Source: Candidatus Micrarchaeota archaeon (GTDB lineage Archaea; Micrarchaeota; Micrarchaeia; Anstonellales; Bilamarchaeaceae). From it: DNA of 64,000 bases. Under the pieces are notes generated by a model that saw nothing but the letters and a program-made list of their open reading frames with translations, did not search any database and was not told the origin of the DNA. Where the stretch lies: positions 57,025-121,024 of the forward strand of contig JBBSVN010000012.1 in assembly GCA_038046765.1 (NCBI GenBank). Direction: 5' to 3'. The position numbers and the translations under genes were made by a program. This document shows positions 12,040 to 33,800 of the stretch, piece by piece; the stretch's first letter is position 1; each line of letters opens with the position of its first letter.

Positions 12040-13398
12040 TTAAATCAGCCTTATTTCTTTATTTTCCTTATCAAGTTGCATTAAACTAACTGTTGCACCA
12101 TTTTTAGTTGCTTTTTTTATTGCAGGGTTTTGACACAGAACTTGCTTTAAGAAATTTAAAACTTCTGGATCAGAATGTACAATCACAATATGTCCCGTAC
12201 TTTTAACACAATTAACAGAAGCAAGTGCATATTCAATGCTTCCAAGTGCTTCTTCGCTTAATTCTGCGTTTTTCAAACTAACCGCGAATAACTCGTTTAA
12301 ATCTGCACCAAAGAACGTGCGGCCATTTGTTACATTGCCTAAATCTTTTGGATCGCTTAAAATTATCGCGTGAGCATACTGTTCTGCAAAAGTTTTTCCT
12401 GCAATTTTAGCGTGCATGATCGCGATTCGCACTTCGGATGTGGTTTCTGAAACAAAATCAGATAATTCTCTTGTTTTAGAATAAGTAAGTCCTAAATCAG
12501 TTGTATTAAATCCGATTACTCCCGCATATACTTTTATTTTTCTTTCTCTTACAATATCTAAATTAGCTAATACTTCTCTTTGATATTCTGTGTTATTGAT
12601 AAATATGTTGGGGTGACCAGAGCCTTTTATGTGGATTCGATCTAATAACCTATCAATGCTTTGGCTTTTTCCGCGGTGTTTATGTTCGTCTTTTTTAACT
12701 AAGCATGCTCCGCAACCAATGTGGCCAATAACAAAAATTTCGCCATTTTCCTTAAGTTTGTCTATTACTGCACGTACTTCATCAGTTACTGCATTTCCCG
12801 CAATCTGTACAGTTGCTATGTGTTTACCCTCATAATGCCTAAGAGACGTAGCCTCACACCTGGAATCAGAACACATTAATACAACTGCGTCATACTCTTT
12901 AGGTGTTTTTACTAAAGTACGTTCAAGTGCTCCTTTAGCTCCTGCAATTAAAATTTCTCTTGACGCTTTGATGTCAAGGAGTCCTTGTTTTGCTATTATT
13001 CTTTTTAAGTCATCTATATAAAACGGATTTTTTCTGCTTTCTCTTACTGAATCTGGAATAAGTAATCTTTCACTTCGAGTAAAACTTCTTGGTCGTGCTA
13101 CTTCTTTATCTGTTTTTCTTGGGTCTTCTCTATGCTCTACTCCTCTTAATTTTTGTAACGAAAGAATAATATTTTCTGCATCTTTTAATCTTTTTTTAGC
13201 CGTTTTGTCCTTTTTGTTTTGAATCAGTTTTTCCTTAATCTTTTCTATATTGGCAACATTGAATTTCCGATCTCCAAGAATTAGCGTAGCTTCAGGAAAA
13301 TTCTGCTTATTTAAGTCTAAGCAAAAATCAATTAATTCCTGGTGAAGCATAGGATCGGTAATCTGAATATTTTTTAACTTCAAGTCCGGACACTTCAA
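12040..13398 (-). CDS. Tandem-domain beta-carbonic anhydrase-like protein (domain 1 intact, domain 2 degenerate)
   Basis: Domain 1 has CSDSR, IAGN and GHIGCGA (all three Zn ligands plus the Asp-Arg dyad). Domain 2 has HAIILSDP..ELFAV..ALGSIEYAL..HIVIVH without Cys ligands. About 150 aa N-terminal extension; TTG start after GGCGA. Confidence 0.8.
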   Translation of the reverse strand: MKCPDLKLKNIQITDPMLHQELIDFCLDLNKQNFPEATLILGDRKFNVANIEKIKEKLIQNKKDKTAKKRLKDAENIILSLQKLRGVEHREDPRKTDKEVARPRSFTRSERLLIPDSVRESRKNPFYIDDLKRIIAKQGLLDIKASREILIAGAKGALERTLVKTPKEYDAVVLMCSDSRCEATSLRHYEGKHIATVQIAGNAVTDEVRAVIDKLKENGEIFVIGHIGCGACLVKKDEHKHRGKSQSIDRLLDRIHIKGSGHPNIFINNTEYQREVLANLDIVRERKIKVYAGVIGFNTTDLGLTYSKTRELSDFVSETTSEVRIAIMHAKIAGKTFAEQYAHAIILSDPKDLGNVTNGRTFFGADLNELFAVSLKNAELSEEALGSIEYALASVNCVKSTGHIVIVHSDPEVLNFLKQVLCQNPAIKKATKNGATVSLMQLDKENKEIRLI

Positions 13399-13447
13399 TA
13401 CATCGCCTAATTCTATGTCTTTTTTTATGTTTTAAAAACTTATAAAA

Positions 13448-14458
13448 CTATGCTAGAATAAAAGTTTGGCCATTCATCTTGTTGAACTTCATCAGGGTAA
13501 TTAGTTTTCCATTTTGGCTCTTTTCTTTTATTATTTTACTTTCAAGAATCTGTTTTTTTAATTCCTTAACTGTATCACTATCTGTATGAAGTATCATTAT
13601 ATGTGGTGAGTCCTTAACTCCATGAACCTTTAATAGTGCATCTTCTATTGCTGCAATTGATACTGTAGCTATTTTCTTACCAAAGTTACTCACGCATATA
13701 ATTTCGTTTAAATTTCCGTCAAAGATTATTCTGGGGTTGTTTACTAAACCTAGGTCTAGTGGGTCGCTTAAAATAATTGTATGTGCATATGCTGCATTCA
13801 AATTTACTCCCTGGTTTTTAGCCTTTGTTAATCTGCTGCTTAAACTTCTTTTTAATCCGTTTATACTGTTGCTTGGTTTACCATCTTTTAGAAATCGTAT
13901 TGGTTCAAGACTATTTGTAAAATCTGCAAGTACTGGTATTATTGCTGCTTTTTTAGATATTAAAATTTCGTTGTGTTTTAATTTTTCTACCTGGTTTATT
14001 GCATTTGCAGAGTATATATCTTTTGCAAAACTATCCTTTTTACCAATTTCCACGTGACTAATTAAATTATCTATGCTGTTACTAATTCCTCGGTTATTGC
14101 TTTCCTGTGCTTTTAAATCACATTCATAGCACATTAGCGATCCGCAGACAATTACTTCTCCATCTTGTTTTATTCTGATAAATCCGTTATCCAAATCATC
14201 TGTTACTATCTGCCCTGCAGTTTGTATGTTTAAAATTTTTTGTTCTAGGTAATCTGTTAGAATTGTTGGATCAGTGCGTGGTCCAGTTGATGAAACTAAA
14301 ACTAAATCATATTCCGCCGGTTTAGCCAAGTTCGCTTTCTTTTGGGTTATTTGCCTTACAAATGCTGCGTTTCCTGCAATTAACAAATCAAGCGATTCTT
14401 TTACTAAAATTGGTTGCTGCGTTTGTACTTTCTTCATTACGACATCGAGTAATACCAT
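13448..14458 (-). CDS. Tandem-domain beta-carbonic anhydrase paralog with degenerate Zn site
   Basis: Collinear with 12040-13398 (LIAGNAAF; TAGQ; AYAHTIILSDPLDLG). CSDSR is replaced by STGPR and GHIGCGAC by GSLMCYEC. ATG 14458 follows GAGGTG. Confidence 0.7.
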   Translation of the reverse strand: MVLLDVVMKKVQTQQPILVKESLDLLIAGNAAFVRQITQKKANLAKPAEYDLVLVSSTGPRTDPTILTDYLEQKILNIQTAGQIVTDDLDNGFIRIKQDGEVIVCGSLMCYECDLKAQESNNRGISNSIDNLISHVEIGKKDSFAKDIYSANAINQVEKLKHNEILISKKAAIIPVLADFTNSLEPIRFLKDGKPSNSINGLKRSLSSRLTKAKNQGVNLNAAYAHTIILSDPLDLGLVNNPRIIFDGNLNEIICVSNFGKKIATVSIAAIEDALLKVHGVKDSPHIMILHTDSDTVKELKKQILESKIIKEKSQNGKLITLMKFNKMNGQTFILA

Positions 14459-14559
14459 CGAACGCACCTCTGGTGGATAATTAGTACTTTATAGTAATAG
14501 CTTATGCTAGTAAAGAATTAAAAAAAGGAAAGATTAAATTATTTGAAAAATATTTAAAA

Positions 14560-15102
14560 TTATTTTCTCATTTTCTTGGATTTTTCCTCTAAGATCATTC
14601 CCGCTTTAAGAAGTCCTGCCAGAAGTTGATACGGGTTAGGTGGGTTTCCAGGTACATTTACATCAACTGGTACAGTATCTTCAACTTTTCCGCTTCCAGC
14701 TAATGCATAACTACCTTGATATGGAAAACCCGTAACTGCACCATCTCCTGCTGCGACAACTACGCGCGGGTCTGCCATCGCATCATAACTTTTCTCAAGT
14801 GCAAGTTTCATATTCATTGTAACTGGACCTGTAACAATAATTACATCTGCATGCCTTGGCGAGGCTACATAGTGGATTCCAAATCTTTCTGCATCTACAC
14901 GCGGGTTCATCATCATCTGTTCTTCAAGTTCGACATCGTTTGGCGAACCAGCGTCAACCATTCTAACGTGTATTGACTGCGCAAAAGGGTTAAGACTGCG
15001 TTTTTTAAGTAGTTCTGCAACCTCTCTAATATCTGGGTCATCTGAATTAGGATCTATACGGTCCGGATATTTTTCAAAAAGGAATTTGAATATTTCAAAC
15101 AT
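14560..15102 (-). CDS. NuoB/HycG/HyfI-like small subunit of an Ehr-type complex, lacking all Fe-S cysteines
   Basis: ERFGIHYVASPRHADVIIVTGPVT and VPVDVNVPG are diagnostic; ligand positions read GSPNDV, GDGA and PGNPP; there is no Cys in the protein. Confidence 0.9.
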   Translation of the reverse strand: MFEIFKFLFEKYPDRIDPNSDDPDIREVAELLKKRSLNPFAQSIHVRMVDAGSPNDVELEEQMMMNPRVDAERFGIHYVASPRHADVIIVTGPVTMNMKLALEKSYDAMADPRVVVAAGDGAVTGFPYQGSYALAGSGKVEDTVPVDVNVPGNPPNPYQLLAGLLKAGMILEEKSKKMRK

Positions 15103-15111
15103 ATTTACACC

Positions 15112-16668
15112 TCACAAATCAGTACCTGCGTAAGACATATTAAAGCTTTTATTTATAAGCGGGAAATCTGGCACAATATTTCCAGGAACTAAATTTTCCG
15201 CGCCACGCCAGTTACGAAAAGATGCTGTCCTGCATCTAAAACTTTTTATTGTTCCATTATCCATTAGTTCAATCATGAATGTACAAGAACCTCTTGGTGC
15301 CTCTGCCCATCCTAAGCTCCATACACTTTTACGCGATTTTGAAACTGGTACTGGTGCAAGAATCTCGCCATTAGGCATCTTGGCAATTACTGTCTTTATG
15401 ATTTCAACTGCTTGTTTTACTTCTGCAATTTTTACTAGGAACCTGCATAATACGTCTCCTCCCTCTTCCTTCTGTTCGCTAAACTTGACCTTATCATAAA
15501 ATTCGTAAGGGAAGTATTTTCTTACATCGCAGCTATATCCTGCTGCACGAGCGACAGGTCCAACTAAAGATAATTTTTGCGCAACCTCTGTTGTAACTAT
15601 TCCTGTTGAATAAACCCGATCAAGATATGTTGAGTTTGTCAATGTAACTGTTTCAAGTGTGTTTAATCTATTGACAAAGTTGTCAAGTTCGCTAACTAAA
15701 ACACTAATTTTAGTCTCATCTAAGTCTGCTTTTACCCCTCCTGGTGTACAAACTCCCCCTAAGAACCTATGGCCAGTTATTTTATTATTAAGGCGCATCA
15801 TATCCTCGCGCAAAACGGCGAATCTAGATGCTGCGAAATAAAATCCGACATCTGTTGGCATTCCGCCTAAATCCGATAAATGACTGTATATTCTTTCAAG
15901 TTCAGCTAAGATCACTCTTATTGCCTGCGCTCGTTCTGGAACTTTTATATCTAGCGCTTTTTCTACCGCTGTACAATAGCCGATCATATTCGCAATTCGT
16001 TCATCTCCTGAAATCGATTCTATAAGTGGTATTGCTTCGGTTATATTTTTTCCTTCAACTAGTTTCTCAACCCCCCGATGAAGGTAGAACATTCTTGTTT
16101 CAAGTTTGTTTATTGATTCCCCGACCACGCTGAATCTAAAATGTCCTGGTTCGATTATACCTGCGTGAACTGGGCCAACTGGAATCTGGAATTCACCTTC
16201 GGCACCCGTCATCGGCATTTCGTAAACGTAATCTGCATTTTTACCCAATCTTTTCTTCTGACCTTCTATATTTTCTAATCCGCCATCAGGATGGAAAAGT
16301 ATTGGACGTGAATCTGGAATGTTATCAAATCTAAGTCCGCTTAAATCCTGCATTTTCCTCTCATCCCATACTGCTGCGTTAACAACTGCAGAAACTGCAT
16401 AAAATTCCTTGCCTTCTGCATATAATACTGCGAATGTTTCAAGAGCTGGCACACGAAAAACATATGATGCCTGAAAGTTTCCTTTTTCTAAATCACTTAT
16501 AAATGAGCTATCGAATAATGCATTCTCTTTAATCATTTTTTCACTTAAACCTGGCAAATCTTTGGAATTACATTTTATCCAGACTATTCCTGATTGTTCA
16601 ACAGAAGAAATTTTTGCATTAGCAGATGACTCAAGCTGTTTTAAGAATTTTTCTAATTTAGAATCCAT
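15112..16668 (-). CDS. NuoCD/HycE/HyfG-like large subunit without NiFe ligands (EhrL type)
   Basis: WDERKMQDL, GPVHAGIIEPGHFRF, HRGVEK, ELERIYSH, EAPRG; L1 position reads ESISGDE (no CxxC) and L2 position reads SFNMSYAGTDL (no DPCxxC). Confidence 0.92.
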   Translation of the reverse strand: MDSKLEKFLKQLESSANAKISSVEQSGIVWIKCNSKDLPGLSEKMIKENALFDSSFISDLEKGNFQASYVFRVPALETFAVLYAEGKEFYAVSAVVNAAVWDERKMQDLSGLRFDNIPDSRPILFHPDGGLENIEGQKKRLGKNADYVYEMPMTGAEGEFQIPVGPVHAGIIEPGHFRFSVVGESINKLETRMFYLHRGVEKLVEGKNITEAIPLIESISGDERIANMIGYCTAVEKALDIKVPERAQAIRVILAELERIYSHLSDLGGMPTDVGFYFAASRFAVLREDMMRLNNKITGHRFLGGVCTPGGVKADLDETKISVLVSELDNFVNRLNTLETVTLTNSTYLDRVYSTGIVTTEVAQKLSLVGPVARAAGYSCDVRKYFPYEFYDKVKFSEQKEEGGDVLCRFLVKIAEVKQAVEIIKTVIAKMPNGEILAPVPVSKSRKSVWSLGWAEAPRGSCTFMIELMDNGTIKSFRCRTASFRNWRGAENLVPGNIVPDFPLINKSFNMSYAGTDL

Positions 16669-16670
16669 AT

Positions 16671-18143
16671 TTAAACACCCCCGATTAAACTACCTGCATC
16701 TTTTATTAAATTAAGAACTGGTGCTGGAGGGAACAATGCTAATGCTATTGCAAGAAGCAAAAGCGCAATCACTGAAAATGACATGTAAGGACTTACTTCT
16801 ATATGTTTTGGCATTTTTTCCGGCTTATTACCAAAGACCATATCTGAAGCTTTGTAGAGGAAACTTGCAAATGCAATTACTGTAAATACGATTACAAAAA
16901 GAGCAACTAGGTATTGTCCCTTTGATAATGCGCCTCCTAGAAGTGCAATTTCAGAAAAGAACGTACCAAATGGGATACTTCCAGCCACTCCTAAAACAGC
17001 TAGTAAAAATAAAAGTCCAAAAACAGGTACTGCGCTTGCAGCTCCCTTTATATCTGGCATATTTTTAGTGCCATATGCATTTGTTATAATTCCACCTAAA
17101 AGAAATGCTAATGGTTTAGCTAAAGAATGAGCAAGCATATGGAATAATGCTGCAAAAATTGCTATTGGTCCACCAATTCCAGTAGCTAGTACAATAATTC
17201 CCATATTCTCTACGCTTGAATATGCTAAAAGTCGCTTAAGGTTATCTTGTGCAAAAAGACGAAGCGCGCCTACAACTAGGGAAAGCACGCCAAATAGTAT
17301 AAATAATCCTGACGCAAAACCTGCAATTTCTGGTGACAAGATTACAATTCCATATACTCTTAATATTCCATAAAGGGCTATATTTAATATAAGTCCGGAT
17401 AGTAAAGCACTAACTGGAGTTGGTGCCTGACTGTGCGCATCTGGAAGCCACACATGCAACGGTACAAGACCAACCTTTGTCCCGTATCCAACTAAAACGA
17501 ATACGAATGCAAGTTTAAGGTATAGTGGGTTTATTTTGGTAATATCAAACGGTGTTCCGTAAACTGGGGTTTCTAAACCTCCCTGTGCAAATGCATAAAA
17601 TAAAACAAGAATTCCAATAAATGCCAGTGTAAATCCAACAGAATTTATTGTAAAGTATTTCCATGCTGCTTCTATTGAAGCTTTGGTGTTGTAAAAACTT
17701 ATCAAAAACACTGATGAGAGTGTTGTAAGTTCAACTGCTGCCCAAACGTGAATTGGGTTTGATGCTAAAAGTCCAGTTAGCATTGCAGCTAAAAACAGGG
17801 AAAGCTGTGCATAAAATCTTGCGAGCCTGTCTTCTTTAATTATTCCTTCTTCTACTTCATGGCGCATATATCCTACAGAGTAAATAAATACCAGTAGTGA
17901 AACAACTGATGTAATTCCTATTAAAAATGCTGATAATGCATCCATTCTAAGTAGTTCTGAGAAATCTGAAATCGGTGCCCCGCTACTTATGAAAATTGAT
18001 ATTGAAAATAGTGCTGCACCAACTGCTCCAAGAGCGCCTAAACATGCAACTAATTCTGCAAGTCGCGGGTGTTTACCTAAAAATACAGCAATTATTCCTG
18101 CAATTACCGGGAAAAGAATAATTAATTCAAGCATAAATATCAC
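16671..18143 (-). CDS. hyfF: Proton-translocating antiporter-like subunit (HyfF/NuoN-like)
   Basis: WAAVELTT, EAAWKY, GTKVGLVPLHVWLPDAHSQAP, KRLLAYSSVEN, PFGTFFSE. Confidence 0.88.
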   Translation of the reverse strand: MIFMLELIILFPVIAGIIAVFLGKHPRLAELVACLGALGAVGAALFSISIFISSGAPISDFSELLRMDALSAFLIGITSVVSLLVFIYSVGYMRHEVEEGIIKEDRLARFYAQLSLFLAAMLTGLLASNPIHVWAAVELTTLSSVFLISFYNTKASIEAAWKYFTINSVGFTLAFIGILVLFYAFAQGGLETPVYGTPFDITKINPLYLKLAFVFVLVGYGTKVGLVPLHVWLPDAHSQAPTPVSALLSGLILNIALYGILRVYGIVILSPEIAGFASGLFILFGVLSLVVGALRLFAQDNLKRLLAYSSVENMGIIVLATGIGGPIAIFAALFHMLAHSLAKPLAFLLGGIITNAYGTKNMPDIKGAASAVPVFGLLFLLAVLGVAGSIPFGTFFSEIALLGGALSKGQYLVALFVIVFTVIAFASFLYKASDMVFGNKPEKMPKHIEVSPYMSFSVIALLLLAIALALFPPAPVLNLIKDAGSLIGGV

Positions 18144-19816
18144 CTTTTTTCATTAAGTTCAGCAAGTTCTCCAGTGTCAACGGTTTTCGCAATACTCTGG
18201 ATTTTAAGCGCTAAAACTACTGATACAACTACCAATACCAATATATCAAAAAGCGTAATTGCTTCGGATATAAGCGGGATGTCCACACCAAGCGCAACTG
18301 GTAAAAGTACAATTCCGTTTTCCATTATCAAAAATCCTAACATCTGTAAAAGAATGTGCGTTTTTGTTGAAATAATTAAAAGACCTATTAAAATTATTGA
18401 AAGTGCAATTGGTAAAACTATTCCTGCAGTCAGGCTTGAACCCACTAAAAATGATACGGAAATAAGTAACACTGAAATTACTAATGCTGTCGTAGTTGTA
18501 ACTGGCGCATCGATAAATAATGGGTCGATATCGATTAAGCTTCTTAATTTCACATTCGTGTGCTTTAGTACATCGGTTATTCCCTCTGGTGTGAGGTTCG
18601 TTTTATCAAGTAAATTCTCTCCTTTTGCCATCTGGTTAAAAATTCGATATATCAAAAGCGGTAAAATTATTACCTTTAAAATTACTGTAATGCCTAGTCT
18701 TAAATAGCTGTCAACTGAACCTGTTTTAACTGCTATAAGTGCAAAAATTATTCCAAGTGCAACGTTTTGCAATAAATATATCTCTATTCTTCTTTTGAAC
18801 GTCGCTCCAAAAAGGAAATATAAATTGCTTATTAGCATTACGCAAAGTAATATTGGGACTGTACCGTTTGCGTTTGGGTCTGGATTAATATGTATTAAAA
18901 ATGCGAATACTGCCAAATTCAAGGCAAAGACAAGAAGCTCGGCAACTTTAAATAATCTGACCTTGACGCTAAATGATTCAACTATTGCTGTAATTACTCC
19001 CAAAACTAGTACTGTTGCTAAAATTGCGGCTGTTCGGGATATCGGGTCGCTAAATAATGCAAGCGGAAAAAATAAATTTGCAAAAAGCGTGAAAAATAAA
19101 AACATTTTTGAAGCTTGCGCCCATTCTATAAGTCCAAGGCTTGGGCCAGAATTTTCAAGAATCATTGCCTCGTGGACCATTGTTAGTTCTAGGTGTGTAG
19201 CTGGGTTATCAAAAGGAAGTCTGCCCATTTCAGCTAGCATCAATATAAATAATGCGGCAGCTGCTAAATAAAATGTTGGCGAACTAAGAATTCCGAACCA
19301 GTTGTTTGGTCCATTTGCAGTGAATATCATTAAGTTGGTACTTCCTGAAAATAATACTAAAAATAAAATTGCTGCAAAAAGGACTGGTTCAATTAAAACA
19401 GAATATAATGATTCCCTGCTTGAGCCTAATCCTCCAAATGCGCTAGCTGCATCCAGGCCAGATAAGATTACTACAAATCTGCCTATTGCAAAAAGATAAA
19501 CGAATATTATTATGTCTGCTACAAATGGCGGAACTGCGGTAAATATTGGTAAAAGTAATGTTGCAGCTACTGTTGAAACAAAAATAAAAATCGGTGTCGC
19601 TAAAAAGATCCATGAACTAATATCGCTTCTAACTGTTCCTTTACTAAATAATTTTACAAGGTCGAAATATGGTTGTATTATTGAAGATCCGCTCCTACCC
19701 TGACAATATGCTTTGACTTTTCTTATGACTCCAACTAGGAGCGGTGAAAGCGCAAAAACAAATAAAATCTGTACAATCATTCCTAAAACTGAAGATATCA
19801 TTGTCATAAATATCAC
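18140..19816 (-). CDS. Fused HyfC (NuoH-like) and HyfE-like membrane subunit
   Basis: N-half: RKVKAYCQGRSG, QPYFDL, FGGLGSSRE, EMGRLPFDNPATHLELTMVHEAMILE (HyfC). C-half: LKVIILP, QMLGFLIMENGI, EAITLFDI (HyfE). One uninterrupted ORF. Confidence 0.85.
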   Translation of the reverse strand: MIFMTMISSVLGMIVQILFVFALSPLLVGVIRKVKAYCQGRSGSSIIQPYFDLVKLFSKGTVRSDISSWIFLATPIFIFVSTVAATLLLPIFTAVPPFVADIIIFVYLFAIGRFVVILSGLDAASAFGGLGSSRESLYSVLIEPVLFAAILFLVLFSGSTNLMIFTANGPNNWFGILSSPTFYLAAAALFILMLAEMGRLPFDNPATHLELTMVHEAMILENSGPSLGLIEWAQASKMFLFFTLFANLFFPLALFSDPISRTAAILATVLVLGVITAIVESFSVKVRLFKVAELLVFALNLAVFAFLIHINPDPNANGTVPILLCVMLISNLYFLFGATFKRRIEIYLLQNVALGIIFALIAVKTGSVDSYLRLGITVILKVIILPLLIYRIFNQMAKGENLLDKTNLTPEGITDVLKHTNVKLRSLIDIDPLFIDAPVTTTTALVISVLLISVSFLVGSSLTAGIVLPIALSIILIGLLIISTKTHILLQMLGFLIMENGIVLLPVALGVDIPLISEAITLFDILVLVVVSVVLALKIQSIAKTVDTGELAELNEKR

Positions 19817-21792
19817 ACCATAACTGCGTAAATAAGAATTGCAACCATGACAAATAGCATGTACATCAAGTAATGTAATAATTTTCCTGTCTGGAATATT
19901 GAAGACCTGGACGAAATTGCTCTAAATCCATTTTCTATTGGCTTATAAATAACTGCCTCGAAAAATGCAGGCCCATACGCATTCTTTTCTGTATTAAGCG
20001 GATTAAGCCATCTGTTTAATGCCCTTTGAATTGGCATTGAAATTCCTATTGGGGTATATTCCATTTTTGATTCTACTTTATGTATTCCGCAATCCCATGT
20101 AACCCTAGTAACATCATTTGCTTTTGTAAATGCTCGAATAATCCAGAGGAATGCAAAAACTGCAATTGTCGCCCCTAATAAAACCAATACGATTCCAAAT
20201 GAAGGAAGGGTAAATACAACTTTTGATGTTGCGCTCATATCGCTAATATTTAACTTTGCAAACATCGGGCTAATTATCGAAAATATTATTGTTGGGAAAA
20301 CTCCCGCTATAATACACGCAATTACTAGTATGATCATTCCTATGTGCATTAACGAACCTACTTCTTTAGCGTGTTCAACATGTTCGCTTCTAGGTAATCC
20401 TAAAAATACCATTCCAAATGCCTTAACAAAAGCTGCTAATGCCAGTGCACTTGTAAATGCGAGGACTAAAACAACTGCACCAAATAAGAATGCAATTAAT
20501 TTAGGAAGTGCTAATCCTGACAAAAGTGCCTGGAACATAGTCCATTCGCTTGCAAAACCATTTAATGGTGGCAAAGCAGAAATTGCTGCTACGCCGACAA
20601 AGAACAAAATTGCAACTACTGGTAGTTTCTTTATCAACCCACCCATTGCGTTCATGTCTTTAGTGTGTGTTGCGTAAGCAACTGCTCCTGCTCCTGTAAA
20701 TAAAAGACTTTTGAAAAGCGCGTGATTTAATGAATGGTAAAGTGCTGCAAATAATGCTAATGCTGCTAATGCGTCCATGTTTAAACTATGAAATAATACT
20801 GCAGCTCCAATTCCTAAGAAGATAATTCCTATGTTTTCTACACTTGAATAAGCGAGAAGTCGTTTTAAATCTTTTTGAATTATCGCATATAATACTCCGA
20901 ATACGCAGGACACTGCTGCTAATAATAATAATAAAATTCCCCACCAGAAATGGAATGGAGTTGCACCTAAAAAGTCAAATAATACCCGAATTATTCCGTA
21001 AATTGCTACTTTTAACATTACTGCGCTCATTAAAGCGGATATATTACTTGGTGCCTGGGGGTGTGCTTCTGGTAACCATGTATGAAATGGCATTAAACCA
21101 GCTTTTGATGTAAACGCGATTACTGCCAACACAAAAATGATACTTGCTAACATGGGTGTTAAACTAATTGTTCTAAATCCGGCAAAGTCCATGTTTCCTG
21201 AAAATCCAGTGAAAACCAGGAACATTAAAATTAATGCAACTGCACCGATATGCGTTATTAGTAAGTATATAAAACCAGCATCTTTTGTTTTTGCTTCCTT
21301 GCTTTCATATGTTACAAGGAAAAATGAGCTAAGTGCCATTAGTTCCCAAAAAATTAAAAAAAGAAGACCGTTTTGAGAAGTTACAACTGCAATCATAGAC
21401 AAAATAAAAATATTATAAAGAAAACCAAATAACGCGTTACTATATCCTTTTTCCTGGTACTCTTTCATGTAATCTATTGAATATATCGAAACTGCTAGTC
21501 CAACTAAAGAAATTAATAATATGAAAAATCCAGAAAGCGCGTCAATACTAAAAGTTAAATTTCCAATCGGGGCAAAATTTCCCAAGTTTAATGGTGCAAT
21601 ATTTGTGCCCATCATTACCATAAGCCCAGCTATTACTCCAATAATGCAACCTAAGATTGCAAATAAAAATGAAAGTTGCCTGCATAAATTTTTCCATTTG
21701 GATAAAACAAGCGACACTAAAGAACCAAATAAAAATAAAACAAAAAGGCCTAATAAACTCTGAGCGGTAAAAAGTTCAATCAAATTAACCAT
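19813..21792 (-). CDS. hyfB: Proton-translocating antiporter-like subunit (HyfB-like)
   Basis: FWELMALSS, SKAGLMPFHTWLPEAHPQAP, MLKVAIYG, KRLLAYSSVEN, NHALFKSLLF, LPPLNGFASEW, TWDCG. Confidence 0.9.
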   Translation of the reverse strand: MVNLIELFTAQSLLGLFVLFLFGSLVSLVLSKWKNLCRQLSFLFAILGCIIGVIAGLMVMMGTNIAPLNLGNFAPIGNLTFSIDALSGFFILLISLVGLAVSIYSIDYMKEYQEKGYSNALFGFLYNIFILSMIAVVTSQNGLLFLIFWELMALSSFFLVTYESKEAKTKDAGFIYLLITHIGAVALILMFLVFTGFSGNMDFAGFRTISLTPMLASIIFVLAVIAFTSKAGLMPFHTWLPEAHPQAPSNISALMSAVMLKVAIYGIIRVLFDFLGATPFHFWWGILLLLLAAVSCVFGVLYAIIQKDLKRLLAYSSVENIGIIFLGIGAAVLFHSLNMDALAALALFAALYHSLNHALFKSLLFTGAGAVAYATHTKDMNAMGGLIKKLPVVAILFFVGVAAISALPPLNGFASEWTMFQALLSGLALPKLIAFLFGAVVLVLAFTSALALAAFVKAFGMVFLGLPRSEHVEHAKEVGSLMHIGMIILVIACIIAGVFPTIIFSIISPMFAKLNISDMSATSKVVFTLPSFGIVLVLLGATIAVFAFLWIIRAFTKANDVTRVTWDCGIHKVESKMEYTPIGISMPIQRALNRWLNPLNTEKNAYGPAFFEAVIYKPIENGFRAISSRSSIFQTGKLLHYLMYMLFVMVAILIYAVMV

Positions 21793-22160
21793 ATTCTAAC
21801 CTACAGTTGGATTTTTTTGAATAATACCTAATACTTAGAAAGGTAAGTTTTTAAATTAAACACTTGGGCGTTTCGAGCTAAAAATTAGATTTTTTATATC
21901 TCGTTTATTCTAAAATCAATCAAAATCAAGATACGGTATCCAAACTAAATATATTTGGAACTGCTTATAAATACTTCGCTGATAAATCGCCACTAACTAC
22001 AATTAAAAAGACAATGCATCAAAGTTTTATAAAATCGATAAACGAATTGAAAATAAAAATTAAAATTTGTGTATCATCAATTTAACATAGGTTTATAAAC
22101 ACTTTTAGACAGAAATTATCATATATCTTTCAAACAAGTAAAATAAAACAAGGCAAGAAA

Positions 22161-23396
22161 ATGTCTGTAGATTTAAGAAGAATTAGTCACAAACTTAAAT
22201 TAAGCGAAATGGATATAAGTGCAATCCCAAGTCTGCGTAGATCTACTACCCCGTTATCTATTCCTCAGTCTGCTTTTGAAATATTTCGTGGCTTTAGCCT
22301 ATTTAATGAAAGGATTAGGCCAACTAAACTTCTAGGTGTACGTTTTGAACGAGTTGCTGGTCAGGCCTTTGACAAAAAGGATTTGCATTCCAGGGAAGCT
22401 ATAAGAAGAAATTTATTAAGCATAAAACAAAAAGGTGCATTTTTAATTTTAGGTCATGGTGGGGAAATTGGTTGTGGTGCAATTAAGGGAAAGCAAAATC
22501 CAAATCCATCCCAACCTCAATTAGTAAAAGATTTAGTTGAGCATATATCCGAAAGAGTCATAGGATTAGATGATTTGCAGTATGCTGCTTCTATAGAAAA
22601 TGCTTTATTTCAAGGCATAAAAATTTTACACGATCCTGAATTTGCAGCAATAATTAAAGAAAAAGATATTACTGTTGTTTATGCTGTTTGCAATGGTGAT
22701 GCCAACTATTCCTATAATGCCTTAAATAAAGGGCTTAATGAAAATGCACTTCTATTTAAGCACCCAAAGTTACAGCAATTAAGAGAACAGTTCCAGCATG
22801 GGTTAGCTAAAGTTTCAGAATTTGGCATAGATCTTAAGAAACAGTATGCTTATGCTGCATTTGGTTATGATCCAGCTGAACTTGCATCTGTAATAGATAA
22901 ATATAGCACTGAAATCGAACTAGGGGGGGTATGCTGTGTTGATTCAAGACTTCCACCACATACTGGTGTTTACTATTTACTTCGAATTGAACCAAATGAA
23001 GCCTTTTCAGGAACATTTCATCATTCAATTAGGCCTGATGGTGTTTATCAACCAATAATTTCTAAATTAGCGGCTGGGAGTATAGAATTTGGTCTTCAAA
23101 ATGTTTGTGGAATAAATAGTCTAAATCCCGATAATCCTGGAAATGGGCATTTAGTTATGCTTGCAACTAGTCTAGCTAATGCAAGAAAAATGAAAGAAAC
23201 TGTACTTCAATTCTCTGGTACTGCTCGCGCAACAAAAGATGGAAAAACAATTTCACTACTTAGTTTTGATGGAAAAGAGTTAGTAATGCAAAATGATTCT
23301 CTTGGTTTTGATTTGGTTGCATCTTATGATTCTCCCGCTCAAATACTTACGCGACCTCCATCTGAATTTGCAGAACTTATGGATCAACGAGCCTAG
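22161..23396 (+). CDS. Third tandem-domain beta-carbonic anhydrase paralog with split Zn-ligand motifs
   Basis: N-domain VAGQ and LGHGGEIGCGAI; C-domain QYAYAAFGYDP, CCVDSRLP, GSIEFGL, GHLVML, ATKDGKTISLL, aligning with the two paralogs at 12-14.5 kb. Confidence 0.7.
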   Translation: MSVDLRRISHKLKLSEMDISAIPSLRRSTTPLSIPQSAFEIFRGFSLFNERIRPTKLLGVRFERVAGQAFDKKDLHSREAIRRNLLSIKQKGAFLILGHGGEIGCGAIKGKQNPNPSQPQLVKDLVEHISERVIGLDDLQYAASIENALFQGIKILHDPEFAAIIKEKDITVVYAVCNGDANYSYNALNKGLNENALLFKHPKLQQLREQFQHGLAKVSEFGIDLKKQYAYAAFGYDPAELASVIDKYSTEIELGGVCCVDSRLPPHTGVYYLLRIEPNEAFSGTFHHSIRPDGVYQPIISKLAAGSIEFGLQNVCGINSLNPDNPGNGHLVMLATSLANARKMKETVLQFSGTARATKDGKTISLLSFDGKELVMQNDSLGFDLVASYDSPAQILTRPPSEFAELMDQRA

Positions 23397-24666: not shown

Positions 24667-24828
24667 TTAATCAAGCATCTTTTTCTGCTGTTTTGACCAT
24701 ACTTGGTTGGGTGTTCTCTTAAGCCATGCAACGTATGCATCTATGAATCGTAATCTCTCTTCAAAATTTTTCTTTTGATCATTTCTTAGTTCATTGAGGT
24801 CTATATTAATGTTAAGATTTTTTTTCAT
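24667..24828 (-). CDS. Small 53-aa protein overlapping the upstream nucleotidyltransferase gene
   Basis: Below the ORF-track cutoff; hand translation MKKNLNINIDLNELRNDQKKNFEERLRFIDAYVAWLKRTPNQVWSKQQKKMLD; preceded by GGTGA; overlaps the upstream gene's end. Confidence 0.6.
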   Translation of the reverse strand: MKKNLNINIDLNELRNDQKKNFEERLRFIDAYVAWLKRTPNQVWSKQQKKMLD

Positions 24829-25435
24829 AATCATCACCTAAATAACTTAACATCTGACTGGGAATTTTTAACACGAATAGTGCTCCTTCAAATATTCTTC
24901 TATCAAGTTCCTTATTAAAAAGTTTATATAAAAATCTGGCATCTTCAATGTCTTTCTGAGCTCCTAAAAATAATTTGTATGCAATCTGAAGTTCAAAGGA
25001 TGAAAAAAACATTCGATATTTGTTATTTAAGTTTATTTGATTTTTTGTTTTAAGTGTTAGCTTGTCAAAATCATTTTTTACAAACTTAAGTTCCATGTTT
25101 GGGATAAAGTTATTCTTTTCATAGAATCTTAATGAAGAATCATTGGATAAATACTCCTTGTAGGCATCCTCCTGATTCTTAGCGTTCATACATTCAAATT
25201 TTTGCATTGTCAAACTCCAGAATTCCTGGAATTTTTTTGAGTCACAACGCTCTATTAAAATGTCAACGTCTTCTGTGTTCCTACTTCTACCAAAAAATAT
25301 TCCGACATATCCTGATACTATTACGTAATCTATGCTTGATTTATCTAACAATTCTATAAACGCTAATACAAAGTTGTCCAAACTAAGAAGCTCTTTTCTA
25401 ATACTTATGTTACCTTTTACGTATTCAATTTCCAT
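24812..25435 (-). CDS. Pol-beta-superfamily nucleotidyltransferase-like protein
   Basis: YVIVSGYVGIFFGRSRNTEDVDIL and YKLFLGAQKDIEDA motifs. Confidence 0.7.
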   Translation of the reverse strand: MEIEYVKGNISIRKELLSLDNFVLAFIELLDKSSIDYVIVSGYVGIFFGRSRNTEDVDILIERCDSKKFQEFWSLTMQKFECMNAKNQEDAYKEYLSNDSSLRFYEKNNFIPNMELKFVKNDFDKLTLKTKNQINLNNKYRMFFSSFELQIAYKLFLGAQKDIEDARFLYKLFNKELDRRIFEGALFVLKIPSQMLSYLGDDYEKKS

Positions 25436-26716: not shown

Positions 26717-27352
26717 TTATTCTTTTATTTTTCTAATTTTTGAATTCTGAAGTATGGGGACATCTAAATTATAAGTTTTGCTAAATGTTTCTAGCCTTCT
26801 TATAAATAACTGCTTCAGTTCCTCTGAAAGTTTTTGTGAATTTAATTCTTCTAAGATATTATTCCAGTTAAGATTTGAATATAAAACCTCCATGTCGGGT
26901 AAATCTCTTTGTCTGCCTTCACTAGCTAGCCCTTTAAAGAGAAAAATATCTTCTTTTGAAAGCAAATAAACAGATAATTTCGAATATGTTTTATATAATT
27001 CTGACCTACCTATCATCGATTCAGATATTGTGAGTTTTCCAACTACCTGGCGTATAAATAAGTCGAGATGAAACCCATCTTTATTTTCGTACATTTTTAC
27101 AGTATTGAGTTTTTCATGTTCGCTTTTTATTGTTCTTGGCTCGTAGTATTGCGCACCAAATAAAGCCCAGCAAAATGCGTCATAATCTGTTTCATCCTTA
27201 AATACAATATCGATGTCCTTAGTAGTTTCTTTTAAATTCCTAAAGGACATTGCACATCCCCCTATAAGGTATATTGAAACCTGTCTTTGAATTCTTGAAC
27301 CAATATTGTTTAGTTCATGGTCAATATAAGACGCATCGAATTGTCTATCCAT
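26717..27352 (-). CDS. Nucleotidyltransferase-like protein (DUF6036/AbiEii-like)
   Basis: YLIGGCAM, TTKDIDIV, LFKGL..RQRDLPD. Confidence 0.7.
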   Translation of the reverse strand: MDRQFDASYIDHELNNIGSRIQRQVSIYLIGGCAMSFRNLKETTKDIDIVFKDETDYDAFCWALFGAQYYEPRTIKSEHEKLNTVKMYENKDGFHLDLFIRQVVGKLTISESMIGRSELYKTYSKLSVYLLSKEDIFLFKGLASEGRQRDLPDMEVLYSNLNWNNILEELNSQKLSEELKQLFIRRLETFSKTYNLDVPILQNSKIRKIKE

Positions 27353-28325
27353 AGACTATCGCCTCAATTTCTTCCCAGGACGGGAACCCTATAAATGTTT
27401 TCGCTCCTTTAGATTCAATAAAGTCCATCAGATTCTTCAGACTTTGGTCGGTTATCCCAAACCGATACCTTACTTTTAAGAGTTGTTCATATTGGACTTT
27501 GTTTTTTAATATCAAACCGCATACATATGCTAAGCTCCTAACATCAAGCCATTTTTGAGGAATGTTGCCTACAGATAAAGTTAGTATATGAATTATTACA
27601 TTCTCTATCTTAGGTTTAATGTTCGTATAATAATTATTTTTTGTTCTTATCAAGTTTACACCATATTTAGATAATAAATTGTATGCAGTCAAATAGTAAT
27701 TTTGGGGATGAATTTCCTCTTTGGTTACAAGGAGAATTTCCCATTTTGTTGGCCCCTTACATATATTGAAGGAGTTTGTAAAACCCATTTCTTTTTTTGC
27801 ATATTCTAAATGTATTATATATAATAAAGAGGTGCAAAAAAGCGAGAGAGGTTCAATCTCATTACGCAGCTGGTAGATCCCTTTTCTTTTCATAAATACA
27901 ATTCCCAAACCCCTTAATCTTTTAATAATTCTTTTTGCACTGGCAGGAGCTAGCTCAGTATCCTTGATTTTAAATTCGACCATATTTCCGTTTTGCTTTA
28001 GATTAAAGTAGCTGATTATATATGGCATTTTTCCAATTAGAGAAGAATAGATTACCTCATCAATATTCGAGTTATTTAAAGTAGTGTCCTGAAGCAGCGG
28101 ATTTCTTATTTTGTTATATTCAGAAAAAAAATATTGAGATATTGAAACCTTATTTTCTTTGCCTATTTTTTTTATTGCTATCAAGCCAAAAGAGTATAAA
28201 TCTCTAATATATTTACTTAAATTGGTTTTCTTTAGATTTAACTCTAAACCTAGCTCAGATTGACCAAGCTCCTGCTTTTGCATAATTTTTTTAAGTAATT
28301 TAACATGTGTTGGTTTTAGAAACAT
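27345..28325 (-). CDS. Winged-HTH protein, partner of the downstream nucleotidyltransferase
   Basis: N-terminal QSELGLELNLKKTNLSKYIRDL wHTH and a second HTH-like segment; overlaps the NTase gene by 8 nt. Confidence 0.65.
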   Translation of the reverse strand: MFLKPTHVKLLKKIMQKQELGQSELGLELNLKKTNLSKYIRDLYSFGLIAIKKIGKENKVSISQYFFSEYNKIRNPLLQDTTLNNSNIDEVIYSSLIGKMPYIISYFNLKQNGNMVEFKIKDTELAPASAKRIIKRLRGLGIVFMKRKGIYQLRNEIEPLSLFCTSLLYIIHLEYAKKEMGFTNSFNICKGPTKWEILLVTKEEIHPQNYYLTAYNLLSKYGVNLIRTKNNYYTNIKPKIENVIIHILTLSVGNIPQKWLDVRSLAYVCGLILKNKVQYEQLLKVRYRFGITDQSLKNLMDFIESKGAKTFIGFPSWEEIEAIVYG

Positions 28326-30881: not shown

Positions 30882-33800
30882 TTAAACAAAATCCGCAAGT
30901 CCAAGTTGTCTGCTTTTTTCATCTTCGAAAATACTTCGTATTTCCTTTTTAACTAGAAGTAGTCTTTGCTTTAAATAATCCGGTAATTCGTAATCTGCAA
31001 TAATCTTTTCTGAAATTTCTAAGTATTTTTCAATTCCTCCCTTATTTATTGTTAAAATAAGATTTCCTCCACAGAAATTGCATTTGCCCGATAACGGGAC
31101 GCGTCTTAAACTTTCATTACAACTAGTGCATCTAAATGTTTGCCTTGAAAATGATCTTAAATTACCATATAAATCTGGTATAAAATGGCTAAGGATTAAT
31201 CTTTCAGCAGCATTCTTCGCATCTACTGCCCTTATTTTTCCCTGTAATTTAAATTGCGTGGTTATCTTATCAGCCATATTATCAAATGTTACATAAGCCG
31301 TTCGTAAATTTCCTTTATCTATATATCCGCCCGTATGCGTAAGCTGAATTTCAAATTGCTCGGGGGTTCCAAGTAAGTCCTTTACTGTTTTTAATTTTAC
31401 TTCTGTTGGAGGTGTATACTTTAGTGTTGCCTCATAAAATTCTTTTGGATAAGAATTCACTACTTCAATACAGTGCGCTTCATCATCAACTTCTTTTGGG
31501 TCTAACTGAGGTGTTAAAACTAATGGCGCGTCCATTGTCCCCCCTCTTCGCTCAGTTAAATAATGCCTTGAAAAATTAATCAGGGTGTCCATAAGAAGCA
31601 TGACTGAGTCTTCATCACCATCACATTGATAAGTAGTTATTCCAGAACAAATAAGACTGTGGTACTTTTCTACCGTTACATTGTAAACAAATTTATCTTG
31701 GTTTTTGATCGTTTTTCTCTCAATAACCTGATCAATAAAAGTGTCTCCTAAATATTCTGTCCTAGATCCTTTTCTTTTTGTTTCCCACTTCTCCAAAAGT
31801 TTTTGCGCTTTTTCTTGCTTTAAACCAGAAAATCCTATGTTATCAATAAATTTTTTAGCTTCACTAGAATAAATTCTTATCTTATATGAATGAATATATT
31901 TGGGTCTGCCATAAAACTTTATAATCAGAGAACTTTTTACGTATCTATCTTCTTCATAAATCGAATGCTTAATTCCAAAGAAATTTAGCAAAATGGAAAC
32001 TCCATCTATCAGTTCCTTATTTATAGAAGTTACATTCACCTCCAGGGTATTGCCTAAAGAACAAGAACCATCTCCCGTGAAGTAACCTTTTAGCAGTGCA
32101 ATCACTTTTTTATTTGGCAAAGAATAGACAAAATCAGGTATTTTTTTAGTTTTTGCATTTCTACCTATTTTTAACTTTTCAAAGAGTTCGTAAATATATC
32201 TTGAACAAATTGTTATATGTGTTTTATTTACATGAGGTTTAATTCCAAAAACTTTCTCAATTTTTTCTTTTATTATATCTACTGCCCATTCTTTGGTAGC
32301 TGTCAAAGAAACCTGATAACAATCTATCTGCTTATTTTTAGTAAACCCCTCCGCTAAATAAAATCCGATTAAATAGAAGAAATCCTCATCAAGCTTTATT
32401 GTTGGCTTTAACAGAACCTTATCCCTCTTACTACCTAATATATATTTTTTACTCGCCAGTATGTCTGCTCTAAATTCTTTTACCAATTCCAACGGATAAG
32501 ATTTTCTATATATATAATTAGTGAAAGTTTTGTAATTTAATCCAAAACTTCTACTTATTTGAGATAATTCTCCCTCTTCATTGAATAATTTCTCATCTGT
32601 TCTTATCATTGCATCTGTAATATTCAAACTAGAAATAAGTTCCATGTCTTCCCTATCTATAATTTCCCTTTGCAAATTCCAAGGAATTATTAGTTCTTCA
32701 ACTTCATTCGCGCTTACTTTTTCTCCTTTTGAATTCGGAAATTTATGGTCTGGCGTTACCGTTATTCTTCTGCCAGATTTTGTTTTTAACTTTACTAAAT
32801 TTTCTGGTGCAATATGTTTTGAAACATGCGTAATATTACATAATTCAAATTTTTTCATTTTCTTGTTCCAAGCATATGTCTTTACTCCTTCTACTAGTTT
32901 ATATTGAGTCCCAAAATCATCTATTTCTGTTTTTCCGACTAAATTACTTTCTACAAAATCCATTATTTTCGTAAGTTCTAGTGATCCGTTTCGCTCGACC
33001 AAAATTTTTTCTTTTCCATCAAAACAATTTCTCCTTCGCGCTGATATCAAATAAGGATGAGCATAAGATAAATTTGCCTTTGTAAAACCTACAATTCTGC
33101 AAAGAACTGCCGCGCTAGTGTGTGGCGAAAGACAAGCAGTTAGTTGTCCTATTAAGTCCTGTTTTGTTAATGCATTATAAAACGGCGCAAGCCCGTAAAC
33201 GTTTACTAATAAATCATCGATAAATTTTGCAGCCTGTAAGAAATATTCTCCATTCGCTTCTGGTATTACAATGTCCTGTATTTTAAGTGAAACAAGTTGG
33301 TTTTCGTTAGTTAATTCATTTCCATAATAATCTTTCAAATAGCCTAAACTTCTTAGTTTTGCAATACTAACCTGTGCTTCACTTGGTTTAAAATGAGTTA
33401 AAGGGACGTTACTGGCATCAAAGCGCATTGTTCCATCACGAAATACATAAACCCCATATTTCGCCCTTAAAAATCCTTTTTCTAAAAGTTCGGGCGTACG
33501 CTCTAAATTAGATAACCCCTTTATTCCCTTTACATCCTCAACGCTTATGTCTAGTTTTTTCTTTATTGAATCATAAAGTTCGATCATATCTATGGGTTTT
33601 TTTTCAAAGCATACTGTTTCCTTATCACAGTGTATTTTCATGTTAACTGGGTTGCCGCATACAACGCATTTTTTTTCAATAATTGTTTCGCCCTTACAAA
33701 TTTCGCATGTAGATAAAAATGTAAGTTTTTTACAACTCGTACATCTTCTGTTTACAAGTTCAAGGTTAACTGTTCGTTCATCCCTACCACGAAGAGTTTT

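Follow-up and report, generated by a model that had tools for sequence, protein, structure and literature searches.

An iron-sulfur-free Ehr complex of Micrarchaeota with a comparative link to inorganic-carbon supply

What can a relative of complex I do once the ligands of its redox centres are gone, and why should its genes lie among genes for carbonic anhydrase (CA)-like proteins? These questions are raised by a five-gene operon in a stretch of 64,000 nucleotides from a Candidatus Micrarchaeota archaeon (contig JBBSVN010000012.1, positions 57,025 to 121,024; hereafter the window, with positions counted from its first letter). An archaeal host is indicated by PolD and Cdc6, both encoded in the window, and most named homologs bear the label Micrarchaeota. 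The operon encodes an Ehr complex, a type that is widespread and without established function; Ehr complexes are defined by lost Ni/Fe ligands, and the available text of three papers on them gives no tested function (PMC6349859, PMC7894505, PMC4758237). Sequence comparison identifies the present complex as an iron-sulfur (Fe-S)-free Ehr variant and ties it strongly to the supply of inorganic carbon, the strongest signal being that the complex and the canonical soluble β-CA hardly ever occur in the same genome.

An Ehr operon without redox ligands

The genes hyfB, hyfC::hyfE (a fusion), hyfF and those for the large and small subunits follow one another on the minus strand from 21792 to 14560 (Table 1), as a first, sequence-only reading of this DNA had described. 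They overlap or lie 2–9 bases apart, and GGTG- or GAGG-type sequences precede their starts. The set is that of a complete group-4-hydrogenase-like complex, with antiporter-like, NuoH-like, HyfE-like, large and small subunits in the same order as in bacterial control operons. The fusion protein matches Pfam NADHdh at residues 15–308 and NCBIfam HyfE at residues 439–555, and its start is likely the ATG at 19807 rather than the GTG; hyfC and hyfE are fused at most related loci and separate, as two open reading frames (ORFs), at L007. The charged transmembrane residues that had been noted in both antiporter-like subunits are present: HyfB carries FWE, SKAG, MLKV and ASEW and HyfF carries AVE, TKVG and FSE, and E150, K230, K261 and E416 of HyfB and E138, K223 and E398 of HyfF are kept in at least 90% of 19 clade members.

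The ligands of both redox sites are missing, also as first read. At the two NiFe motif positions the large subunit has ESISGDE and SYAGTDL, RxCGxC and DPCxxC being absent, and the four Fe-S ligand positions of the small subunit are taken by P54, V57, G121 and N153. The arginine of the RxCG motif, which contacts the cluster, is gone as well (S218 in this subunit; its clade has Q or S and six controls have R). A substitute cluster of conserved cysteines was not found, the large subunit having one conserved cysteine and HyfB two. With the NiFe site gone and its only Fe-S cluster lost too, the complex cannot carry electrons. Judged by its subunit set and by a large subunit without Ni/Fe-coordinating residues, the operon is nevertheless an Ehr complex; four Fe-S cysteines are usual in Ehr small subunits, and their loss, seen at the level of sequence, marks a variant and not an exclusion from Ehr.

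Among the best 120 of 6417 small-subunit homologs, all 111 top-ranked ones (about 54–82% identical to the query; two are fragments covering three ligand positions) lack the cluster cysteines and mostly have P/S, V, G and N in their place, while seven of the last nine keep all four and two have another cysteine-less set. On these alignments the loss is old and conserved. Sequencing error or decay can be dismissed as its cause, because the loss is common to 111 homologs and the frames are open, and so can a general loss of Fe-S assembly, because SufB/D is present in the host genome. In a quick tree, the 23 large subunits of the cysteine-less type form one branch (SH-aLRT support 100), apart from seven bacterial four-cysteine Ehr complexes and three of another cysteine-poor type; large and small subunits of the clade are 50–64% identical and have clade-specific invariant residues. 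Six bacterial Ehr operons, hand-picked from 60 of 217 plasmid records, served as controls, and all six keep the cysteine motifs and lack HyfH. Hence the missing NuoI/HyfH subunit, which had been given weight in the first reading, is indeed absent here but is ordinary and no mark of a new type; what sets the operon apart is the lost Fe-S site.

Of the described operons, those of Geobacter sulfurreducens (GSU0739-45) and Rhizobiales (hyfB-C-E-F-large-small) are alike in subunits, gene order and the absence of NiFe cysteines and HyfH. The archaeal operon differs from them in that it lacks the four Fe-S cysteines kept by 6/6 controls, has hyfC and hyfE fused, has CA-like neighbours and appears to replace the canonical CA. 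Neither a link between Ehr and CA nor an Fe-S-free Micrarchaeota small subunit was found in the literature covered, which included few subscription papers and excluded the supplements of PMC7304191 and PMC6349859, where small-subunit cysteines may be treated; the available text of PMC11540253 and PMC8407392 has no bearing on the matter. Two further observations concern other Ehr operons. A second cysteine-less small-subunit type, with S, S, E and N at the ligand positions (P0114, P0119 and L092:278-898, its genomic context being one 1-kb contig), is very close to ordinary alphaproteobacterial Ehr, which suggests an independent loss; and a four-cysteine Ehr operon on a Methylovirgula plasmid (L046:1-4737) is divergent from an F-type ATP synthase operon.

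Ehr and the canonical β-carbonic anhydrase

The distribution of both systems was compared in a phylum set of 401 genomes, which are 75–100% complete and related to one another. Fourteen of these match the cysteine-less small subunit, 180 match the profile of the CA1 family described below (a count that includes short CAs, about 44 of the matches listed being full-length long forms) and 22 match that of the c4 family, seven of the latter being Ehr genomes. Canonical CA was defined as a PF00484 match with E <= 1e-20, a threshold set after the long forms had been seen to score at 1e-5 to 1e-16; it drops four genomes (G008, G001, G023 and G342) from the list obtained at 1e-11. In families f1 and f6 taken together, canonical CA is found in 0/11 Ehr genomes and in 83/95 others (f1, 0/6 against 61/70; f6, 0/5 against 22/25), one Ehr genome (G003) being counted on HyfF, the large subunit and part of a small subunit, a fragment that stops short of the ligand positions. 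In genus g19 the figures are 0/3 against 24/25, and both states occur, in the same direction, within each of five genera (g4, g19, g35, g42 and g47). Neither system is present in 12 of the 95 f1/f6 genomes (13%), about as incompleteness would give, and a search with one Ehr subunit in nine genomes without CA or with weak-scoring CA gave no match. Canonical CA is rare in other families (f13, 19/94; f14, 4/83; f17, 5/21), so that their four Ehr genomes say little. Nine further Ehr genomes, outside the cysteine-less small-subunit matches of the 401, include one with canonical CA, and canonical-type CA is found in 2/24 Ehr genomes overall. True NiFe hydrogenases, with RxCGxC and DPCxxC present, were found in three f1 genomes, and all three keep canonical CA. 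As far as sequence comparison goes, the Ehr complex and canonical soluble β-CA are nearly mutually exclusive, and this signal is stronger than that of the CA neighbourhood. A connection with CO2 and bicarbonate, suggested earlier from the neighbouring genes, thereby gains support from the CA flanks of 16/22 operons and from the near-exclusion. As a separate observation, the canonical-type CA of the Ehr genome G176 has 307 residues, and a 307-residue canonical-type β-CA in an Ehr genome (L080:8955-9878) has an N-terminal hydrophobic stretch and could be exported.

The two systems also share a chromosomal place. Ehr-less relatives carry the short CA next to or near the eRF1 gene, usually with a long CA-like gene and sometimes with purE, and Ehr occupies this slot at 12 loci. 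An eRF1 tree of 35 rows (these 12 loci and 23 with short CA, chosen by hand among 40 regions; L015 and L023 are partial) shows eight changes between the Ehr and CA states, of which at least seven are forced by starred branches; starred sister pairs of opposite state are L013/L073, L024/L077, L008/L060 and L007/L067. Such a tree cannot tell gain from loss. The operon of the window stands away from the slot, eRF1 being on contig C3 of the host, and has kept its CA-like neighbours. The eRF1-matching ORFs of L072, L077, L023 and L028 are 800–930 residues long, more than twice the usual length, and are probably intein-bearing.

Carbonic anhydrase-like neighbours

Three CA-like genes lie around the operon, CA1 and CA2 beyond the small subunit and CA3 divergent from hyfB (Table 1), and they are the only members of their family found in the host genome. 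In CA1, the first domain has an intact site (C176-x-D178-x-R180 and H226-xx-C229) and the second has none. Its AlphaFold2 model (pLDDT 85) matches the Porphyridium CA structure 1ddz with Z 22.1 (root-mean-square deviation 3.7, 285 residues aligned) and CsoSCA (8thm) with Z 16.6 (4.3, 278 aligned); hydrolases of carbonyl sulfide (COS) and carbon disulfide (CS2) score lower than true CAs (3vrk, Z 9.9; 3ten, Z 11.0). By motif and modelled fold, CA1 is a predicted β-CA enzyme. CA2 has S, G, R, S and C at the five site positions and is the sole one of 44 aligned members in which C176, D178 and H226 of CA1 are all replaced (by S, G and S). In CA3, the first motif is absent from its usual place, and C259-x-D261-x-R263 stands inside an insertion of the second domain; together with H99 and C105, these residues, all five invariant in 12/12 family members, may form one zinc site. 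The CA3 model (pLDDT 80) matches 1ddz with Z 17.9 (deviation 3.6, 284 aligned), and the family profile matches that of the CA1 family at E 2e-41; in the ESM Atlas, the best feature scores for CA3 reach 0.76, under the bar, and its own model is poor. CA2 and CA3 align to CA1 at E 1e-45 and 5e-9. Hence, of the claim that three related tandem β-CA genes flank the operon, fold and places stand, but CA2 is a pseudo-enzyme with three of four metal-site residues gone and the CA3 motif is displaced. The CA3-type subfamily, with its Cys-x-Asp-x-Arg moved into the second-domain insertion, occurs both with and without Ehr.

Two β-CA domains per chain are also found in 1ddz, CsoSCA and CsoSCA2, the last described, in the available text, as having an active and a defunct domain (PMC9164163), and these proteins give the best structural matches. 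The CA-like proteins differ from them in sequence (9–15% identity; for CsoSCA Z 16.6 with CA1 and 11.5 with CA3 at 9–10%), in the position of the CA3-type motif and in Pfam, where CA1 matches only Pro_CA, CA2 and CA3 match nothing, and none of the three matches the CsoSCA domain. The T-run and TATA-like word that had been reported between the small subunit and CA2 were found there and suggest, as patterns only, separate transcription. A sigma-70 promoter scan, with a model unsuited to archaea, was at chance (40 found, 43.3 expected).

Table 1. Features of the Ehr locus, in window positions
Feature	Position	Strand	Description	Basis
CA1	12040..13398	minus	helical N-terminal domain and tandem β-CA fold	Pfam Pro_CA, 32.4 bits (cut-off 25.7)
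CA2	13448..14458	minus	tandem β-CA-like pseudo-enzyme	31% identical to CA1; degenerate metal site
intergenic stretch	14459..14559	minus	T-run, TATA-like word, GAGGTG before CA2 ATG	pattern only
small subunit	14560..15102	minus	NuoB-like	without any cysteine
large subunit	15112..16668	minus	NuoC+NuoD-like	without NiFe cysteines
hyfF	16671..18143	minus	antiporter-like subunit, 490 residues	NCBIfam hydrogenase 4 subunit F, E 5e-110
hyfC::hyfE	18140..19816	minus	NuoH-like HyfC fused to HyfE, 558 residues counted from GTG	
hyfB	19813..21792	minus	EhrA-type antiporter-like subunit (NuoL-like), 659 residues	NCBIfam hydrogenase 4 subunit B, E 7e-193 (643 bits, under the cut-off of 667)
hyfB/CA3 intergenic region	21793..22160		divergent, AT-rich; TATA-like words on both sides	pattern only
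CA3	22161..23396	plus	tandem β-CA fold with rearranged site	alignment to CA1; structure match

Scanning of species-representative genomes gave 23 Ehr loci, of which 22 belong to the cysteine-less clade (L029, of another type, was dropped), and gene order is kept at all 22 as far as contigs reach. CA-like genes flank 16 of these operons, 15 by profile or Pfam match (the CA1/CA3 families, the c4 family and L022) and one, L020, by motif only; at L012, L021, L025 and L028 contigs are cut on at least one side of the operon. The six bacterial controls have no CA motif or annotation within 12 kb. Two to three long CA-like genes with intact sites are often present at an Ehr locus, and the CA3 type adjoins Ehr at five loci including this one. 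The c4 family is linked to the CA1 family by profile match (probability 95.3, E 2e-8), and its profile has no match among solved sequences; for the c19 family and the 257-residue gene of L020, the link is a weak match (E about 1e-3) plus motifs. Proteins of the c19 family are 650–740 residues long, have C-x-D-x-R and H-x-x-CG motifs and adjoin Ehr or the short CA (L013:10589-12811, L024:10543-12591, L073, L075, L076, L081 and L083), and a c4-type gene that is whole in L010 is split in two ORFs in L007 (10688-12053).

A metagenome scan added 15 loci, 11 of which have another cysteine-poor small subunit, encoded first in the operon, and probably belong to the Candidate Phyla Radiation (CPR). A CA-like gene stands directly upstream at four of the 11 (L096, L097, L101 and L103; three weak Pfam matches below cut-off and one motif only), and most of the others are cut short. 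In the available text of PMC7304191, a CPR Ehr clade is described whose large subunit lacks metal cysteines, small subunit and CA not being mentioned there; the Micrarchaeota complex is like it in this respect and in its reduced-genome hosts, and the similar metagenome loci share cysteine-poor small subunits and, in part, CA-like neighbours. Unlike those loci, the archaeal complex has its large subunit on a separate branch, and the metagenome loci place the small subunit first, with other residues at the ligand positions. At L095–L105 this first-encoded small subunit has zero or one cysteine at the first motif.

CA1 relatives amount to 63 matches in a 50%-representative protein library. Micrarchaeota (L050–L091) hold a large unannotated family of tandem β-CA-like proteins of 330–460 residues, with several subfamilies, mostly invisible to Pfam and often clustered with short CA, eRF1 and purE. 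At L050:8265-11062 and L051:7644-10485, a CA1-like and a CA3-like gene are divergently adjacent without Ehr, which is the layout of the window minus the operon and CA2.

What the complex may do

Three known systems bear on this question, each cited here from the available part of its source. In staphylococci and their relatives, CA and MpsAB can stand in for each other and 'rarely coexist', CA working against a bicarbonate pump (PMC8552792). DAB is redox-free and driven by an ion gradient (10.1101/476713), and its subunit DabA2 has two β-CA-like domains, one zinc, no free activity and a finger into the membrane (10.64898/2026.03.13.711513). In cyanobacterial NDH-1(3)/(4) with CupA/CupB, a complex I scaffold is tied to CO2 hydration (10.1101/476713). 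On the comparative evidence and the precedents of MpsAB and DAB, we read the Ehr complex as a system that is driven by an ion gradient, supplies inorganic carbon and takes the place of soluble β-CA, a reading to which we give a probability of roughly 0.55. Like DAB and MpsAB, it combines antiporter-like subunits with a two-domain β-CA-like partner gene, has no redox centres and rarely stands alongside soluble CA. Unlike them, it has five or six subunits where DAB has two, its CA-like proteins are soluble and interchangeable, and DabA (PF10070) was found in 0/5 Ehr genomes including the host (a control search was positive in 2/14). DabA is also not visible among the structural matches of CA1 and CA3, which does not exclude a likeness. 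NDH-1/Cup differs in being electron-driven and in its Cup proteins, which are another family.

Without a cofactor, the complex would have to link the movement of one ion either to that of another or to a chemical reaction, and without redox input it is more likely a consumer than a builder of an ion gradient; the label 'proton pump', used in the sequence-only reading, is therefore doubtful. The gradient may come from the A-type ATPase or a membrane pyrophosphatase, and the host genome has both an A-type ATPase and an H-PPase family gene. Ions would enter through HyfB and HyfF, opposite to complex I, and the movement would be relayed by HyfC to the cofactor-free pair of large and small subunits; charged residues are kept in the two antiporter-like subunits and in the NuoH-like one. 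The net output would be cytoplasmic bicarbonate, to be consumed by carbamoyl-phosphate synthetase and in the making of purines; genes of the host whose products use inorganic carbon include those for carbamoyl-phosphate synthetase and PurE and one of the RuBisCO family. Within the carbon-supply reading, we tentatively favour chemistry by an exchangeable, gated tandem CA-like protein of CA1 or CA3 type near the complex; action of the complex alone, for instance as a bicarbonate transporter, is slightly less probable. It is conceivable, though on balance unlikely, that this is a third energy-coupled architecture of CO2 capture beside DAB/MpsAB and NDH-1/Cup, in which a redox-stripped complex I/hydrogenase scaffold would run backwards, inward ion flow driving the once catalytic arm through a cycle of conformations and so gating exchangeable tandem β-CA proteins (the relocated-zinc-motif type included) to make bicarbonate one way, cofactor loss and CA pairing having arisen more than once, in archaea and small bacteria. 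If a prediction based on the exclusion holds, a job would be named for part of the Ehr family, and an archaeal inorganic-carbon pump of new architecture would be added to those known. If true, the complex would also be a natural complex I relative moving ions without a redox centre, and so of interest for the coupling between the two arms of complex I itself.

Several observations weigh against the carbon-supply reading. The Fisher P of 5e-9 for the exclusion in f1 and f6 overstates it, because the genomes are related and not independent. Two genomes, G176 and G417, hold both Ehr and canonical-type CA, and searches of G123 (91% complete), which keeps Ehr, found neither carbamoyl-phosphate synthetase nor PurE nor any of the CA kinds tested for. 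Five genomes (G001, G023, G009, G013 and G018) have long CA-like genes, and neither the clade small subunit nor canonical CA was found in them; the long forms may thus work alone. Long CA-like genes occur more often in the absence of Ehr than with it, frequently next to a short CA, and the Ehr-linked copies span at least five subfamilies, none exclusive to Ehr. The neighbourhood is in part inherited gene order, and L019 and L027 have no CA-like neighbour on either flank. CA1–3 show no membrane-like hydrophobic segment, whereas DabA2 has its membrane finger, and a freely active CA1 would short-circuit a bicarbonate pump.

Two other explanations are each improbable, and about equally so. In the first, the genes hitch-hike: the eRF1-side slot would exist in two versions swapped by recombination, the extra long CAs of the Ehr version would make the short CA dispensable, and the job of Ehr would be unrelated. 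The shared slot and its repeated swaps would follow, as would the two to three intact long forms often found at Ehr loci and the five genomes that seem to manage on long forms alone. However, long forms coexist with short CA in many Ehr-less genomes (two long forms each in L052 and L053) and so do not normally displace it, the window keeps its CA neighbours away from the slot, and CA-like genes also stand upstream in the separate cysteine-poor clade, at 4/11 loci. In the second, the complex keeps pH or salt in balance as a redox-free, Mrp-like cation/proton antiporter or as a converter of gradients, its CA-like neighbours serving the same pH physiology. Such a role suits a complex that has no redox site and keeps the charged residues of both antiporter-like subunits, and it suits the retention of Ehr in G123, where no CA or bicarbonate-using enzyme was found; yet the absence of canonical CA from 22/24 Ehr genomes and the 50–64% identity of large and small subunits with their invariant residues are left unexplained, and the operon, which holds five genes, has no small MrpE/F/G-type subunits, although no genome-wide search for these was made.

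Less probable still is the strict model of the sequence-only reading, in which the cofactor-free arm is a scaffold and CA1, CA2 and CA3 are a dedicated hetero-oligomer docking on it stoichiometrically. Three paralogs do bracket the operon, the pseudo-enzyme CA2 could be structural, the CA3 type recurs beside Ehr, and the face to which NuoI binds in complex I would be vacant. The comparative data speak against it: partners vary by locus and every subfamily occurs without Ehr too, the nearest relatives of CA1 and CA2 are in Ehr-less genomes, the degeneration of CA2 is unique, signals of separate transcription intervene, two Ehr loci lack a CA-like neighbour and in one Ehr genome no CA of the kinds searched was found. 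When 65 long CA-like proteins of the examined loci are placed on one tree, the 28 Ehr-linked ones are scattered, and starred branches force at least ten changes. The idea that tandem CA-like genes are specific to Ehr was accordingly rejected, as they are commoner without it and no subfamily is exclusive to it. Very improbable, finally, is that the CA-like proteins perform other β-CA-fold chemistry (on COS, CS2 or similar), with Ehr handling ions or product, or that the complex is redox-active through a non-cysteine cofactor: COS and CS2 hydrolases share the fold, and quinone or formate dehydrogenase partners are proposed for other Ehr complexes in the available text of PMC6349859 and PMC7894505, but true CAs score higher against CA1, the exclusion concerns canonical CA and no alternative cluster of conserved cysteines is present.

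Elsewhere in the window, the PolD large subunit (30882-35642) carries an intein and a LAGLIDADG domain. A nucleotidyltransferase-like gene (weak DUF6036 match) is paired with a winged-helix gene, and an unassigned gene of similar size accompanies them (24812-25435 and 26717-28325); we take the pair to resemble a toxin-antitoxin pair.

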